From Pseudomonadota bacterium (GTDB lineage Bacteria; Pseudomonadota; Alphaproteobacteria; Rhodobacterales; Rhodobacteraceae), in assembly GCA_039818265.1 (NCBI GenBank), contig JBCBUG010000012.1, forward strand, positions 45,132-109,131: a DNA stretch of 64,000 bases. Reading direction: 5' to 3'. Below the pieces are notes generated by a model that did not search any database, was not told the origin of the DNA, and was given only the letters and a program-made list of their open reading frames with translations. Made by a program: the position numbers and the translations under genes. Below are positions 39,235 through 47,893 of the stretch, piece by piece (position 1 is the first letter of the stretch; every line of letters begins with the position of its first letter).

Positions 39235-39543
39235 TTAGCTACAGATCGCCTGCGCCATCTGGCCAAAGTTCTGATACCGATCCCACAGCGCATCGTCGCG
39301 CGAAGATTGTGACATCTTCAGCTCCTGCGCCTGATGGGGGTCGGTGAACCATTTGGCAACGGTCTTCTGATCACTGCGCGTCAGGGCCTGATTGGCCACC
39401 CGCTGAATGCAACTGCACCGATCCCGCGTCGCCGCCGACCGGTCCGACGCCATACACGCCCGTTTGATCTGCGCCGCGTCCACAACCGGAGCCACCGCCG
39501 TCAGCGATGCCGCACAAAATGCGATAAGGAGGAACTGTTTCAT
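39235..39543 (-). CDS. small secreted Cys-containing hypothetical protein
   Basis: Signal peptide MKQFLLIAFCAASLTAVAPVVDA and 4 Cys in the mature part. GAGG RBS. Confidence 0.55.
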   Translation of the reverse strand: MKQFLLIAFCAASLTAVAPVVDAAQIKRACMASDRSAATRDRCSCIQRVANQALTRSDQKTVAKWFTDPHQAQELKMSQSSRDDALWDRYQNFGQMAQAICS

Positions 39544-39733: not shown

Positions 39734-40750
39734 ATGATGATTTCTATCAAATCGGTTTTTATGTCGGCATTACTTTGTTTGTCTCCGTTTGTGGTTTTGT
39801 CGGATACGCCTTCTTTGCAAGGCGAAGATGCGCCGGAATTCAAAGAGGCGGTTCAGGCATGGTTGGACGGAAAGGACTTGGCTGCATTGCGAAGCCTTTC
39901 TGATCAGGCGCAACAGGGTAACTCAGCAGCTCAAATCCTTCTGGCAAGCATTGCAAGCCGGAGCAGTTTTCATGCGCACGTTACTTCTGGGATGGATCGA
40001 AAGGAGCGTATCTCCCTGCTGCGAAAACCCGGCGGTTTGTCCGGCAAATCATGGCTGACGGAAGCGCAAAACTCAGAGCCGCTGGCCCTTGCGCTACTAC
40101 AAGTTGGCAAGTTCAAGGAAAAGGCGCCTGCAATCGCTGTACTGATCGAACTTGGCGAGCCAATTACAGCGATGCTTGCTGCGCAAACTATGCTCCACAA
40201 CGGTGAAGGCGCGGATTTGGTTGAGGTTTTGCAAGGCCGTGATAGCAAGCTTCCAAAAGAATCTAACATCTTCCTGTTCTGGGCGCTACATCAACAAAAT
40301 CAAGGTTTAGATGGTCCTAACTTTGGAGGTTCAGCATCATTGGCCAGAATTTTGACTGGAGATGATCGCTTCATGCCATCCGAACTAACGTGGGGCATAT
40401 TCACTCCTAGAGAATTGCTAAATGACCCGGATATCAGGGAAGCGGCGCTCCAATTTAGTTCAGAGATAACGGCTTGGACTCCCATTCGTAAGTTTTGTAG
40501 TGATTACTGCGCGGATGAAGAGTCCGATTGCACTGTCACGGCAGCTGCCTTGCTTTCCTCGCCTTATTCTCCCAGAAGCCCATTGCAGAGCTTGATTGCC
40601 AATCAAAATTATTGGTCGAGTGACCGGATTGAAGGAGACGTCGCGCGTTCGATTCGGGACATCAGGGGTTGGGAGTTTAGTGCAGAATACGAATACAATC
40701 AGTGCTTTACATCCAACATGCAGGCACTTCAGCGAGCGCATTGGCCATAA
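39734..40750 (+). CDS. secreted hypothetical protein (possible Sel1/TPR-like N-terminal region)
   Basis: Signal peptide. AT-richer: 55/120 G+C in two hand-counted lines. AQQGNSAAQILLASI is weakly Sel1-like. Confidence 0.5.
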   Translation: MMISIKSVFMSALLCLSPFVVLSDTPSLQGEDAPEFKEAVQAWLDGKDLAALRSLSDQAQQGNSAAQILLASIASRSSFHAHVTSGMDRKERISLLRKPGGLSGKSWLTEAQNSEPLALALLQVGKFKEKAPAIAVLIELGEPITAMLAAQTMLHNGEGADLVEVLQGRDSKLPKESNIFLFWALHQQNQGLDGPNFGGSASLARILTGDDRFMPSELTWGIFTPRELLNDPDIREAALQFSSEITAWTPIRKFCSDYCADEESDCTVTAAALLSSPYSPRSPLQSLIANQNYWSSDRIEGDVARSIRDIRGWEFSAEYEYNQCFTSNMQALQRAHWP

Positions 40751-40913: not shown

Positions 40914-42713
<1,800 letters not shown>

Positions 42714-42791
42714 AGGCTGGCCATTTTTAAGGCGGGTGGGCGAAAGCGGTTGGCGCAGCCAACTGCGTACCCGCGGGGTGGGGCGGCCAAG

Positions 42792-44057
42792 TCAACCGCC
42801 GGTATTTTCTGTAGGTGAGTGAAATTTGTCCGCGCAATTGAGAATATAGAGAGTTCTCTCTCGCGAATTTTCTTCGCTGCTCACATCGCAGAACTGCCAA
42901 AATTCCTCTTCGCTGCTAAATTTGAATGGATTGGCCAAGTAGTGGCGCATCATCGGTTCAATCAACGATTTGATTTGATGAGCTAAGGTGTCACCGAATT
43001 GAGTGCTAACCTCTCCACTGTGCGAGTACATATTCCGCCGAAGCTTAAGATGCTGGCCCAAGGCGGTCATTTCGCTACGGGTCGTGAAAAAGCCAGCGGC
43101 GCGCCTGATAATGCGGTCATGATTTGAGTTTTTGAAACCTGCGATGGTTTCCAGCACTTGCCAACCTAGCATAAACGCATCTTGCGGATTATGTTGGCTA
43201 AATGCTTGATTGTACAGTCGAAGTGCTTTCAACGCGTTAGGTCTCCACTTGTCTGGCAATTCGTGAATTTTCTCGAACGTGAGTTTTGTGGCTTTCTTGA
43301 TCGACCGGTGCTTTTGCTCGTTGGGTTCTGCGTTAAAATAATTTTTTGGATACCACTGATGGTAGTAGAAACCCGGATAGGCCAAACTCCCCTTGAGACC
43401 GTGAATCGTTATATGTGGCGCAACGAGAATGCGCGAGATTGGCCTTTGAATTCCTGAGTACATTCGCCAATTAGAACCATGGCTGCTCCAAAAATTTGTG
43501 CACCCGAGAACTTCGTCTAGTGCTTTTTGCGTTGTGTTTTGGGCGGTCTCTGGATCGGAAGCTTTGGTTCGTGCAAAGCATAGCTTATAGTTGGCAATCT
43601 CTTCAAAGGTGTTCTCAAAACCGGACTTGAAACTCTTACGCTGCTCGGCGCGGTTGTGTATAACCTCGGTAAAGACTTTGGTATTCTCGCTTGGATTGAA
43701 GTCTATTGAAACATCTTCAGATTTGTATCGATTTTGAAGTAGCTTGATCTGCCCCCAAAGAGGATACACTACTAGCCATGTTTTCTGACGGTCTTGCAGT
43801 TTGCGTTTATGTTCATGATACGCGGCTTTGAATGAACTTATGCTAAGGGTTTGCGAACTGTTCATCGCTTTTGCGATCGCTGCGGACTTCACGCTTTCTG
43901 GAACTGTTTCATCTATGATTGCTGTTTCAAGAATACTTCTCCAATAATCTGGCACGCCAAAATGACCATAGCTAACACTGCCTGTATCTTGCAGTGTTCT
44001 CGATTTTGAGACCGCACTTAGAAGTTCGGTGACGTTGAAACCAGAATTCCATTTCAT
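42792..44057 (-). CDS. orphan 421-aa protein with a C-terminal HEPN-like domain (putative Abi/defence RNase)
   Basis: Single uninterrupted ORF in an AT-rich islet: 106/240 G+C in four hand-counted lines, against 39/60 in one lepA line. An R341-N-M-Y-S-H346 (RNxxxH) motif at nt 43020..43037 lies about 45 aa after the helix AFMLGWQVLETIAG. Confidence 0.5.
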   Translation of the reverse strand: MKWNSGFNVTELLSAVSKSRTLQDTGSVSYGHFGVPDYWRSILETAIIDETVPESVKSAAIAKAMNSSQTLSISSFKAAYHEHKRKLQDRQKTWLVVYPLWGQIKLLQNRYKSEDVSIDFNPSENTKVFTEVIHNRAEQRKSFKSGFENTFEEIANYKLCFARTKASDPETAQNTTQKALDEVLGCTNFWSSHGSNWRMYSGIQRPISRILVAPHITIHGLKGSLAYPGFYYHQWYPKNYFNAEPNEQKHRSIKKATKLTFEKIHELPDKWRPNALKALRLYNQAFSQHNPQDAFMLGWQVLETIAGFKNSNHDRIIRRAAGFFTTRSEMTALGQHLKLRRNMYSHSGEVSTQFGDTLAHQIKSLIEPMMRHYLANPFKFSSEEEFWQFCDVSSEENSRERTLYILNCADKFHSPTENTGG

Positions 44058-44217
44058 AACGTGTTATAACTGCCTGATATTTTAAAGTATCTGCTTGGTA
44101 CTAATGTAGAATTAACAGCGATAGAACGTCAATCAAACCACCCGCCCGGCGGCACCGCCGGGCCGCGCCGACCCGCCCCCGTCAAACCGAAGGTTTGCCT
44201 CCGGCAAAACGGGCGGC

Positions 44218-44403
44218 GCGTTTGCGCCTCCCCTCGGGTCGGTCGCGGCCCTACGCACTGTTGATCAACCGTTGCAAACGCGTTTGCGCCCCAGGGCTCG
44301 GCCCGTTCGCGGCTGAATTCCTCCACTGGACGAATTCCAAGACGCCGCTCATCCCCTCGGTTCGGCGCGGCCTTCATTTCTACGATCAACCGCTGCCAGC
44401 GAC
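44218..44403. repeat. three degenerate tandem repeats of ~62 nt
   Basis: Units begin at 44218, 44280 and 44342. GCGTTTGCGCC recurs at 44218 and 44280. CCCCTCGG(G/T)TCGG..GCGGCC...GATCAACCG(T/C)TGC recurs at 44230 and 44353. Confidence 0.6.
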
Positions 44404-45311
44404 TAAAGTCGCGCTGAAGCGAAGATGAAGCTTTCCTTAGAAAAGTTGCAACCGGCCCACGCCCTCCCAATCTGTTTAACAGGACAGCGGGGATTTACGC
44501 CGTAGCCTGCGGATCAGAACGACCTACAGCACTGTTCTGGACTGACAGGCGAACCGAAGCGTCTCCGGCCTGATCGAGAGTAGGGGGTACCAGCTGCCTG
44601 CGCGGGCAGCGTTTAGTAGGTATTTATGATCAGGTCGGGACGCTTCTCAGAGCCCCAGCCGGCAGGGCGAGTCGTTCTTCGATTCGGGCTCAACCACAGC
44701 GGGATTCGTCGGTTTGCGATTGTATATGGCCTTCGCAAGTGCAGCATCGCCTGAGATTTGAGCGTTTTCGATCCTTTCGGACTTTTCCACGCGCAAGCAG
44801 GCCAAGTTACAAAACTTCTCGATTTATCCACATCGCCCTCCCGGCGGATATCAACAGGTTATCCCCGTCTAATTTTCATGCTGCAGTGCTATTTTCTTGC
44901 CGGTTTCTGGCCGCAATGTAACAGTGAGATCACCGCAGCACTTCCTCGGAACAGGCAGCGGGGCGCAAGGGCCAGGGGGCCAACGCAGGATCGGGTAAGT
45001 TTTAGGATTTGCTTGGGTTTGCAGGGGTTTACCGGTTGCTGAGCGGTCGAGTTGGGTGTCAGATCCCGGGTCGATAGATCAGCTTCTCAAAATGGGTCTT
45101 GGGCGCTGTAACGGCCTTCGGGTCGAAGCGGCAGTCGCAGCTTCGAAAGGGGCTGAGGCAACTGGATCAGGGTGCCCCCTTGGGGCGCGCTGAACCGGTA
45201 AGGCGTCAGGAGTGTCCGCAAGGATAAATGCAAAGACCGCGTCTGCGCACCTGACGCCTTTTCCTATTCCGGTTCCATACAGGCCATCATCCAAGACCCC
45301 TTCGAATGGAA

Positions 45312-45345
45312 ACGGGGTTCCTTCGTGTGAACGAAAGAACCCCGT
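45312..45345 (-). terminator. hairpin downstream of the entericidin-like gene
   Basis: 9-bp stem ACGGGGTTC / GAACCCCGT with an inner TTCG/CGAA extension. The minus strand continues TTTCCATT. Confidence 0.5.
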
Positions 45346-45468
45346 CTTTGTGTCAGATAATGCAGTGCCGCGTCTATGCACCTGTAGCGCCAAGACTAGT
45401 GGTTCTAGATCAGAAGATCAACAATATGTTGATGAATTTTGGCGTGGCTCCGCAATATACTGGGCCTA

Positions 45469-45606
45469 TCAGATGTTCTCTTGAACCTCAGTGGCCGCAT
45501 TCTGGATTGCATCCCCTGCGTTTTCGATATCTTTCCCAGCGCCTTTGGCGGTTTCGCAGGCGGTCAGGGCAAACAGGCTCAGGCCAATCAGGATTGCTCG
45601 GATCAT
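45469..45606 (-). CDS. entericidin A/B family small lipoprotein (45 aa)
   Basis: Below the ORF-track length cut-off. Hand translation gives MIRAILIGLSLFALTACETAKGAGKDIENAGDAIQNAATEVQENI. Lipobox LTAC and a GGAGAC RBS. Confidence 0.7.
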   Translation of the reverse strand: MIRAILIGLSLFALTACETAKGAGKDIENAGDAIQNAATEVQENI

Positions 45607-45860
45607 ATTCGTCTCCTTGGTGGTCGATCATGATTTCGGTAGCACCTTTTCCCAAGCGGGACCAGCATCAGCGGCGCTGTTCGTGACAAAAGCGGCAGGC
45701 CCGGTTGAATATGACCTGAGTTAGCACCAGCGATCAACAATCTCACAATCGGCCTGCGAAGTGAGGTGCACCCCTTGCAGCCCCCCAAAGGCAACACTAA
45801 GACTCGGGTAACACTTGTTGGGATACTCTCCCGATCCATAGCAAAGCAGGCAGGTTAAGA

Positions 45861-46493
45861 ATGTTCGATCCCGTAGAAACCTACATGAATACGCTTGTCC
45901 CCATGGTTGTCGAGCAGACCAGTCGGGGTGAGCGCGCCTATGACATCTTCTCGCGTCTGCTGAAAGAGCGGATCATTTTCATCAACGGCCCGATCCATGA
46001 TGGGATGAGCCATCTGGTGGTGGCGCAGCTGCTGCATCTTGAGGCGGAAAACCCAAACAAAGAAATCTCGATTTACATCAATTCGCCCGGCGGCGTAGTG
46101 ACCAGTGGTTTGTCGATCTACGACACAATGCAGTACATCAAGCCGAAATGTTCGACATTGGTGATCGGTCAGGCGGCCTCGATGGGGTCGGTCCTGCTCG
46201 CCGGTGGCGAGAAGGGTATGCGCTTTTCGCTGCCCAACAGCCGCATCATGGTGCACCAGCCCAGCGGCGGCTATCAGGGTCAGGCCAGCGACATCATGAT
46301 CCACGCGGCCGAAACGCAGAAACTGAAAGATCGCCTGTATGACATCTATGTGCGCCATACAGGGCAGACAAAAAAGGCGGTTGAAAAAGCGCTGGATCGT
46401 GACAATTTCATGAGCCCGGAAGAAGCGAAAGACTGGGGCCATATCGACGAGATCGTCGAGAACCGCGCCAAGATGGATACGGAAGAAGCCTAA
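45861..46493 (+). CDS. clpP: ATP-dependent Clp protease proteolytic subunit
   Basis: [29 protein letters not shown] active-site Ser and VHQP. Confidence 0.96.
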
Positions 46494-46627
46494 GAAACAT
46501 GCCTGGCGCCATCGGCGTCGGGCGCATTTTTGAGATTGTAGCCGCCACAGTGCTGGCCTAAGCTGCATGAACATGCGCAAGCGCGGCCCCGAACAAGGGG
46601 CAGTGGACGAAGCCCGAAAGGTAGATC

Positions 46628-47893
46628 ATGGCGACGAATTCAGGCGGTGACAGCAAAAACACGCTCTACTGTAGCTTTTGTGGAAAAAGCCAGCATGAGG
46701 TGCGCAAGCTGATCGCGGGTCCGACCGTTTTCATCTGCGATGAATGTGTCGAGCTTTGCATGGACATCATTCGGGAAGAGACCAAAGCCAGCGGGCTGAA
46801 ATCTTCTGATGGGGTGCCAACGCCCAAGGACATTTGTGAGGTGCTGGACGACTACGTCATCGGTCAGGCGACGGCAAAGCGTGTTCTCTCGGTTGCGGTC
46901 CACAATCACTACAAACGTCTGAACCACGCGCAAAAGGCCGGCGGTGATATTGAGCTGGCGAAGTCCAACATTCTTTTGATCGGCCCAACGGGTTGCGGCA
47001 AGACATTGCTGGCCCAGACGCTGGCGCGCATTCTGGATGTCCCGTTCACGATGGCAGATGCAACCACTCTGACCGAGGCGGGCTATGTGGGTGAAGATGT
47101 CGAGAACATCATCCTCAAACTGCTGCAGGCCAGTGAGTATAATGTTGAACGCGCACAACGCGGTATCGTCTATATTGACGAGGTCGACAAGATCACGCGC
47201 AAATCAGAAAACCCATCGATCACGCGCGACGTCTCGGGCGAAGGGGTCCAGCAGGCTCTGCTGAAGCTGATGGAAGGCACTGTGGCCAGCGTACCGCCTC
47301 AGGGCGGTCGCAAGCACCCGCAGCAGGAATTCCTGCAGGTGGACACGACCAACATCCTGTTTATCTGCGGCGGTGCTTTTGCGGGGCTGGACAAGATTAT
47401 CGCACAGCGTGGCAAAGGCTCTGCCATGGGCTTTGGCGCTGATGTGCGTGAGAATGATGATCGCGGTGTCGGTGAGATATTCAAGGACCTGGAACCCGAA
47501 GACCTGCTGAAATTTGGTCTGATCCCGGAATTTGTCGGCCGCTTGCCGGTTCTGGCGACATTGGAAGACTTGGACGAAGACGCACTTGTCACAATTCTGA
47601 CCAAGCCCAAAAACGCATTGGTCAAGCAATATCAACGTCTCTTCGAACTCGAAGACGCCGAGTTGGCCTTTACGGATGATGCGTTGAAAGCGATTGCCAA
47701 AAAGGCGATCGAACGCAAGACCGGCGCGCGCGGATTGCGATCGATCCTCGAAGATATCTTGCTGGACACGATGTTCGAACTACCGGGCATGAAGAACGTG
47801 ACCGAGGTGGTCGTGAACGAAGAGGCCGTGACCTCTGTCGCACAACCTTTAATCATCTATGCCGAGGCGGCTGAATCTGCGTCAGCCGGCTGA
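46628..47893 (+). CDS. clpX: ATP-dependent Clp protease ATP-binding subunit ClpX
   Basis: Zn ribbon CSFCGK..CDEC and Walker A GPTGCGKT. Confidence 0.96.

Follow-up and report, generated by a model that had tools for sequence, protein, structure and literature searches.

A lone AT-rich gene downstream of lepA in a Rhodobacteraceae genome and the case for reading it as a stand-alone HEPN-type ribonuclease with an N-terminal sensor

HEPN domains were defined (Anantharaman et al. 2013, PMC3710099) by an Rx4-6H motif at the close of helix 3, by a polar residue directly after the arginine, in most cases N, D or H, and by an acidic residue in helix 2, the last often lying within an Ex3[KR] form. A metal-independent RNA-cleaving activity, with 2',3'-cyclic phosphate ends as its products, is also expected of the superfamily. 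Several described systems are built on such domains. ApeA (PF18739) is a single-protein HEPN anti-phage system whose ligands, 5'-phosphorylated deoxydinucleotides, occupy a pocket between its N-terminal and HEPN domains and so bring on tRNA anticodon cleavage (bioRxiv 10.64898/2026.01.26.701840). HepT, the ribonuclease (RNase) of the type II toxin-antitoxin pair HepT/MntA, is a metal-independent enzyme that acts as a dimer and has an Rx4-6H motif and a four-helix HEPN core, and AbiV, HEC-08/DUF3644, RiboL-PSP-HEPN and DUF4145 are candidate abortive-infection RNases that combine HEPN with variable accessory domains; in HEC-08, mutation of the motif histidine abolished defence (bioRxiv 10.1101/2024.01.29.577857). 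Here, we take up a single gene in a 64,000-nucleotide (nt) stretch of DNA from a bacterium of the Rhodobacteraceae (contig JBCBUG010000012.1, positions 45,132 to 109,131), the whole of which we call the window. The gene sits as an AT-rich islet downstream of lepA, and we read it, with moderate confidence, as a horizontally acquired, stand-alone HEPN-type RNase with an N-terminal sensor, acting in the manner of abortive infection.

The gene is an intact, full-length open reading frame (ORF), and the parts of it on which the argument turns are as follows (pLDDT, predicted local distance difference test; pTM, predicted template modelling score).

42792..44057, minus strand: islet coding sequence, 421 amino acids (aa), a member of an unnamed family of ~410-aa proteins; an ORF colinear with 950 HMMER representatives, with an AlphaFold2 model of pLDDT 93.7 and pTM 0.89.
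43323..44057, minus strand: N-terminal alpha/beta domain of the predicted structure, residues 1-245, proposed to be sensory or regulatory, with H219 (43401-43403) in a T-x-H strand, G223 and W231.
42933..43244, minus strand: predicted HEPN-like four-helix core, residues 272-375, placed by helix boundaries and by weak HEPN-family matches on the region.
Residues 272-286: helix H1 of that core.
Residues 291-306: helix H2, with W299 and E303.
Residues 313-321: insert helix, with R319.
Residues 327-347: helix H3, ending in R341..H346.
Residues 352-375: helix H4, after a four-residue loop.
43020..43037, minus strand: candidate Rx4H catalytic motif R341-N342-M-Y-S-H346 at the C-terminal end of helix 3, picked out by the conservation of R, N and H.
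43149..43151, minus strand: E303, candidate second active-site residue, invariant and placed as the helix 2 acidic residue of HEPN domains (PMC3710099).

A first reading of this DNA, made from the letters alone and hereafter the sequence-only reading, had called the protein an orphan that matched no recognised family. The second half of that statement holds, there being no named Pfam, NCBIfam or PADLOC family for the protein or its relatives. The first half does not. A word-indexed protein search, made with the protein alone and with an alignment too, returned only the query itself, annotated as a hypothetical protein, and one other sequence; this was a limit of word-indexed searching, and it was overturned by an exhaustive HMMER search of 1.84 billion cluster representatives, which gave 950 family representatives at an expectation value (E) of E<=1e-3, 289 at E<=1e-10 and 37 at E<=1e-30. 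The family numbers 950 clusters or more at 50% identity, nearly all of them seen once, and ten representatives that we sampled were nearly all singletons even at 90% identity, called "hypothetical protein" where they were named at all. Homologues are mostly 405-440 aa long and run colinear with the window protein from residue 1-10 to about residue 410, with 18-33% identity to it.

Against that background of divergence, a handful of residues do not move. We aligned 60 members (mean column identity 30%) and 150 members (19%), counting at each site only the sequences that cover it. R341 is kept in 148/148 homologues and H346 in 146/146, despite the low overall identity, and the conservation of this pair, on which the sequence-only reading had staked its case, is thereby borne out. 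At position 342, 144/148 have N and 2 have H, and the pattern R-[polar]-x3-H occurs in 145/147 sequences. The helix AFMLGWQVLETIAG, residues 294-307, holds two more fixed points, W299 and E303 (each 148/148); R319 follows closely (145/148). The N-terminal domain has its own: H219 is kept in 147/147 homologues of the 150-member alignment, G223 in 144/147 and W231 in 136/149. From the invariance of H219 it follows that the N-terminal domain is constrained just as the putative catalytic residues are. The window copy retains all of the invariant residues, and the codons at 43020..43037 (CGG AAT ATG TAC TCG CAC, giving R341-N-M-Y-S-H346) read exactly as had been reported.

The predicted structure puts these residues where a HEPN enzyme would have them. 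We modelled the full protein with AlphaFold2, using the 60-sequence alignment, as well as the C-terminal 178 residues alone (pLDDT 94.3), and we read the topology from secondary structure only. Residues 1-245 form an alpha/beta domain, with strands at 20-30, 92-119, 158-166 and 210-219, for which we found no match in Pfam, PDB or BFVD; residues 247-413 are all helical. In the secondary structure of the model, every sequence and topology feature by which PMC3710099 defines HEPN domains is present, including an insert between H2 and H3: the motif ends a helix, and the conserved glutamate lies two helices upstream, with the insert in between, as a HEPN-like layout would require. The Ex3[KR] form is not present around E303, where the family consensus is LExLTG.

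Sequence profiles lean the same way, faintly but from several directions. We scanned 150 members individually against Pfam, and every HEPN-family match lay below its curated threshold. DUF4145, which PMC3710099 names as a HEPN prototype, was matched weakly in 9 of the 150, HEPN_Apea in 7 (best E 9e-4) and RiboL-PSP-HEPN in 5, and Swt1-HEPN, Cthe2314-HEPN, the RnlA toxin domain (RnlA-DBD) and LinB-like_C in one each, while unrelated Pfam families were hit by 1-3 members each. The commonest weak match was MauJ (14/150), an uncharacterised family counted here apart from the HEPN families; it was also the only Pfam family matched by the window protein itself (PF17419, 19.9 bits against a cut-off of 28, E=0.0014, residues 278-354). 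PADLOC gave weak matches of family members to CARF_HEPN and Cas13-ApeA; a single weak match to HEC-06 we rejected, HEC-06 being a GmrSD-like enzyme and unrelated (bioRxiv 10.1101/2024.01.29.577857). Searched against all PDB sequences, the C-terminal profile found Ec3ApeA (9hxj_A) as its best match, at E=0.022, in an alignment that takes in both the L-W-x-x-L-E helix and the R-N-x-i-v-H segment. The single protein had no match among PDB sequences, and a 67-aa fragment of Ec3ApeA, used as a query, found nothing in the protein index or in plasmids.

Taken with the motif and the secondary-structure topology, these convergent, sub-threshold profile matches make it likely that the family belongs to the HEPN superfamily, a placement in which we have good confidence, and the most likely identity of the C-terminal domain is that of a HEPN ribonuclease domain that has diverged. 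Neither ApeA nor any other named HEPN family, however, can claim the protein as a member.

ApeA is nonetheless the nearest working analogy. Both are single genes with no partner; both have a C-terminal domain, predicted to be of HEPN type in the window protein, with an R-N-x-x-x-H-like motif and an upstream L-W-x-x-L-E helix that align with Ec3ApeA; and both have a large N-terminal region proposed to sense the trigger. They differ in size, the window protein having 421 aa in all, whereas the HEPN region of Ec2ApeA alone extends to about residue 583, and in build: ApeA is predominantly helical and has three domains (an N-terminal one, a Mid one and a split HEPN), unlike the alpha/beta N-terminal domain and one helical domain predicted here. 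HEPN_Apea, moreover, stays sub-threshold in the 7 members that match it and is not matched by the window protein, and neither the PADLOC ApeA models nor Foldseek provides a link.

The other relatives are instructive in other ways. HepT resembles the window protein in its predicted RNase character, motif, four-helix core and dimer, but it is a minimal HEPN protein encoded beside an MNT antitoxin gene, whereas the HEPN-like core of the window protein is fused to a 245-aa N-terminal domain and no partner gene adjoins it in the window or in any of the family loci examined. The abortive-infection candidates share the plan of HEPN plus accessory domain, and weak matches to DUF4145 and RiboL-PSP-HEPN turn up within the family, but no match to any of these groups rises above threshold, the N-terminal domain has no counterpart there, and the islet family is typically solitary among core genes rather than part of a restriction-modification or defence operon. 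The match to MauJ spans H1 to H3, motif region included; MauJ, however, covers ~116 profile positions and comes from methylamine-utilisation clusters, and its score falls short of the cut-off.

In its composition, the gene looks foreign to its surroundings. It has 45.3% GC, with 47.9% at third codon positions (GC3), against 59.6% (GC3 81.0%) for lepA, 54.8% for clpP and 57.4% for the whole window, and it is the lowest-GC 1266-base-pair stretch in all 64 kb (window mean 0.575, standard deviation 0.029). The AT-rich leader at 44058-44130, the 73 nt before the start codon, has 34% GC. Both the AT-richness of the gene relative to its neighbours and its possession of an AT-rich upstream region of its own had been noticed in the sequence-only reading, and the measurements agree. 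The leader contains a candidate promoter, with a -35 element TTGACG at 44132-44127, an 18-nt spacer and a -10 element TACATT at 44108-44103, identified by consensus match only (9/12 positions). On the left, positions 42714-42791 have 68% GC; on the right, the change back to native GC-rich DNA comes at about 44131-44138. The features around the gene are these.

44058..44137, minus strand: AT-rich 5' region of the islet, 34% GC, with a sigma-70-like promoter match.
42692..42734, no strand assigned: hairpin over the lepA stop codon, an inverted repeat with 19-nt arms that are 95% complementary (folding z-scores -4.7 and -4.0 on the two strands).
42735..42791, no strand assigned: native GC-rich spacer after lepA, the left islet border, homologous to lepA-downstream DNA of the relatives L027 and L030 and starting inside the left GGCGGGTGG copy.
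44138..44218, no strand assigned: native right border, hairpin-rich, with the right CCACCCGCC copy and a 43-nt syntenic anchor (44176-44218).

The two landmarks on either side of the islet make it possible to see what the same place looks like in other genomes. The lepA-stop hairpin is native, its sequence being kept in L027 and L030; it lies between the convergent lepA and islet genes and may serve as a two-way terminator for both transcripts. The anchor is single-copy in the window and is found, 95% identical, downstream of lepA in the same two relatives, which are among the closest loci. Between these landmarks, L027 has ~330 nt and no gene, L030 has a 169-aa gene of uncharacterised function, and the window has the islet gene; because the interval differs among the three, we regard the islet (roughly 42795-44137) as the occupant of a variable hotspot. 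At 80 metagenome loci with a LepA 85-95% identical to that of the window there is no homologue of the islet gene, and clpP lies nearby in none of them. A contig of another sample (L003), whose ClpP is identical and whose DNA matches window positions 44500-47194 at 94.7% identity, is likewise without the islet gene. The gene is accessory, then, as had been supposed, and not core, and the conclusion that it was horizontally acquired holds.

The sequence-only reading also pointed to an inverted repeat in the flanks, and here we part company with it. The 9-mer GGCGGGTGG is indeed present at 42731-42739, with its reverse complement at 44138-44146 (one position to the left of where it had been placed), and these are its only two copies in the window; but at least two copies arise in 30 of 100 shuffles of the window, and shuffling the 200-nt flanks gives p ~0.13, so the pair is at chance level. 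The two halves belong to the native flank and are not element termini, because they are homologous to lepA-downstream DNA of relatives that lack the gene. The GC-rich flanks had been described as resembling repetitive extragenic palindromic (REP) elements, yet neither has a second copy within the window, and the homologous islets share no flanking repeats. We therefore rejected the 9-mer and REP-like flanks as the ends of a mobile element.

We then have the family at large to consider, through 19 loci in genomes that represent their species (the search pattern was biased towards Alphaproteobacteria, and most are Rhodobacteraceae or other members of that class) and four more obtained by exact protein look-up. 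Of 21 loci, 20 show a gene whose GC content falls below that of its flanks (37% against 67%, 41% against 71% and 42% against 67%, for example); in loci L008-L026, the range is 37-53% for family genes and 43-71% for the host regions around them, L019 alone being on a par with its host. Such family-wide AT-richness might come from transfer out of a low-GC pool, recent and repeated, or it might come from selection for AT-rich sequence. No neighbour is conserved across 21 loci, and for that reason the description of the gene as stand-alone, which we took over from the sequence-only reading, stands. Within 4 kb on either side of 18 GTDB loci there is one definite defence neighbour, a GmrSD-type restriction enzyme 660 nt away in L020; a few further PADLOC matches around these loci are not assigned to a locus, and so few loci cannot carry a test of enrichment. 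One allele is flanked by a tyrosine integrase and a small serine recombinase, and two others adjoin resolvase genes. Copies in L017, L022, L023, L025 and L026 are frameshifted, truncated or interrupted: the one at L025 861-3483 is split by a 342-aa high-GC ORF without a Pfam or PADLOC match, the one at L026 8016-8980 is broken into three frames, and L017 8001-9290 contains no intact ORF.

One recurrent neighbour did tempt us. The gene thyX lies directly upstream of the family members, with gaps of 4-50 nt, at L005 10001-11290, L006 8001-9245 and L008 7983-9227, but these are only 3 of about 22 loci, and we rejected thyX as a general functional partner. The Paracoccus allele in the thyX slot is only 30% identical to the other two members found there, and because the alleles are so different, we take the thyX site to be a second insertion hotspot rather than the mark of a partnership. 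What survives of thyX at the Yoonia maritima locus is a C-terminal remnant alone, with a thyA at a distance of 1.5 kb. Two metagenome contigs, L110 and L111, show a gene order that is a perfect mirror around the centre; these look like hairpin (inverted-duplication) assembly artefacts and not like real inverted repeats.

How might such a protein work? RNase activity, dimerisation, the sensing of a trigger and a role in defence are what we infer from all of this, and a role in phage defence in particular seems plausible. A single gene would have replaced ~200 nt of spacer in the variable slot downstream of lepA, where it would need no partner gene and would be expressed, convergently with lepA, from a promoter of its own within the AT-rich leader. 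Two subunits would pair through their HEPN domains, and a metal-independent RNA-cleaving site would be formed by R341, N342 and H346, where helix 3 ends, and by E303 of helix 2, probably across the dimer interface, by analogy with other HEPN enzymes. The N-terminal domain would hold the enzyme off until it sensed some cue of infection, either a small molecule or a phage component, and the released activity would cleave tRNA, rRNA or mRNA and arrest the cell, as in abortive-infection defence. A bolder version we put forward only tentatively, as a possibility that we would not yet call probable: that this is an unrecognised single-protein anti-phage system, made of a divergent HEPN RNase and a sensor domain without a detectable relative in PDB or BFVD, in which H219 may complete the active site or a ligand pocket, and that it travels as a bare AT-rich cassette, swapped in and out of fixed intergenic hotspots behind core genes (lepA, thyX) without a mobility gene of its own. 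In Rhodobacteraceae-like hosts, such swapping could proceed by homologous recombination of short transferred fragments.

A good deal weighs against even the more modest reading, and it is best set out in one place. No PADLOC model matches the window protein; NCBIfam has no match for it, and PHROGs offers one that is marginal (E=0.094). Foldseek returned nothing below an E of about 0.2-1.7 and no HEPN entry among its top 50 when the full model was compared with PDB and BFVD and the C-terminal model with PDB (in PDB, neither model had a match below E=0.7), short helical domains being hard for the program. Full-length profiles had no match among PDB sequences, and hhalign found no similarity between the C-terminal profile and E. 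coli RnlA, a comparison with a single divergent sequence that has low power. The gene is usually alone among metabolic and housekeeping genes and not in defence islands; no copy occurs in 50,697 phage records, and only one occurs in 72,556 plasmids (a Shewanella plasmid, where it is annotated as hypothetical). One could take the structural and profile searches at their word and suppose that the C-terminal domain is not HEPN at all, but rather a new helical enzyme or ligand-binding protein with some other Arg/His/Glu chemistry, its HEPN matches having been driven by a short motif. Foldseek matched the C-terminal model only to non-specific helical bundles, bRIL fusions and designed bundles among them, all of the HEPN-family profile matches are sub-threshold, and the equally invariant H219 lies outside the putative HEPN domain, which means that the active site could be built differently. 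We find this quite improbable all the same, for the matches converge on about seven HEPN families, as against scattered ones of 1-3 members elsewhere, they extend over stretches of 45-77 residues that are longer than the motif, and there is agreement with the definition in the position of the motif, in the polar residue after its arginine, in the acid of helix 2 and in the H2-H3 insert. The bona fide HEPN domain of ApeA is itself "structurally diverged," and its closest homologue was reported from GT-align, not from Foldseek (bioRxiv 10.64898/2026.01.26.701840). On the fold, then, the expectation of the sequence-only reading has come out divided: Foldseek retrieved no HEPN structure, but the topology of the model fits one.

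A different objection grants the enzyme and disputes its job. A genuine HEPN-type RNase might be a selfish or addictive toxin that spreads horizontally, or it might be a stress-induced enzyme of RNA turnover, and HEPN domains do have many roles besides defence (PMC3710099). The neighbours are mainly housekeeping genes, with defence genes at about 1/18 loci, the protein has no PADLOC match, and the frequency with which the gene has become a pseudogene suggests that it is costly or dispensable. Yet no antitoxin-sized gene adjoins it in the window or in the homologous loci, and because of this a classical toxin-antitoxin arrangement is excluded; the pattern of a sporadic, single-copy, fast-diverging gene in an AT-rich islet is typical of conflict genes, and its nearest characterised sequence relatives are defence HEPN proteins. 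We hold a role outside defence to be unlikely. AT-rich foreign genes are often silenced, and the five damaged homologues might also encourage the thought that the islet is a foreign piece, silent or decaying, that does nothing at present in this organism. In the case of the window copy, this strikes us as very improbable, given that it is intact, keeps every invariant residue, has a promoter-like site and yields a predicted fold of very high confidence. We are brought back, then, to a stand-alone HEPN effector; the foreign origin, the solitary state and the conserved signature that were first proposed for it have survived, whereas its orphan status and its flanking repeats have not.

The neighbourhood holds some further observations of its own. 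The window neighbours of the islet are lepA, entericidin, clpP and clpX, and clpP, which had been given as directly adjacent, is separated from the islet gene by the entericidin gene (45469-45606, minus strand) and by ~1.3 kb of non-coding DNA with gene remnants. Upstream, L003 carries the tail of a membrane-protein gene and, undamaged, a gene for a 150-aa secreted protein (260-712), of which the window keeps only the upstream region (44425-44481) and the last ~55 nt (44500-44557); that only remnants are left of a gene intact in L003 implies an internal deletion of ~430 nt in this genome. The next ~0.9 kb, 44558-45468, has no convincing ORF and is 95-97% identical in two independent contigs, L003 and L004; it could be a non-coding RNA or a regulatory region for entericidin or clpP. 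Rfam lists no known RNA family within 42650-45900. The 43-nt anchor, which likewise has no Rfam match, is more conserved (95%) than the lepA coding DNA of L027 and L030 (82-84%). On the other side of lepA there is a second low-GC gene (39734-40750, plus strand; 49.6% GC, GC3 49%), which encodes 338 aa with a signal-peptide-like N-terminus and no Pfam family; its slot, between a conserved 102-aa gene (39235-39543) and lepA, is variable and measures ~180 nt in the relative L034.

What would it mean if all this were so? HEPN effectors as such are already known, and what is likely to be new, at the level of the family, is a stand-alone HEPN effector with a fused sensor. If the protein is a working HEPN effector, then the small group of RNase immune proteins that consist of one gene gains a widespread member, and one that current defence-finding tools would miss, there being no Pfam, NCBIfam or PADLOC model for it. 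Its structurally unassigned N-terminal domain, with an H219 as invariant as the catalytic residues, would make it a good case in which to ask how a stand-alone HEPN toxin is kept off and turned on. The gene stands alone among core genes, as a low-GC islet, in nearly all hosts, and in relatives, the same slot holds unrelated cargo or very divergent alleles, a pattern that bears on how defence-like genes move about without recognisable mobile elements.

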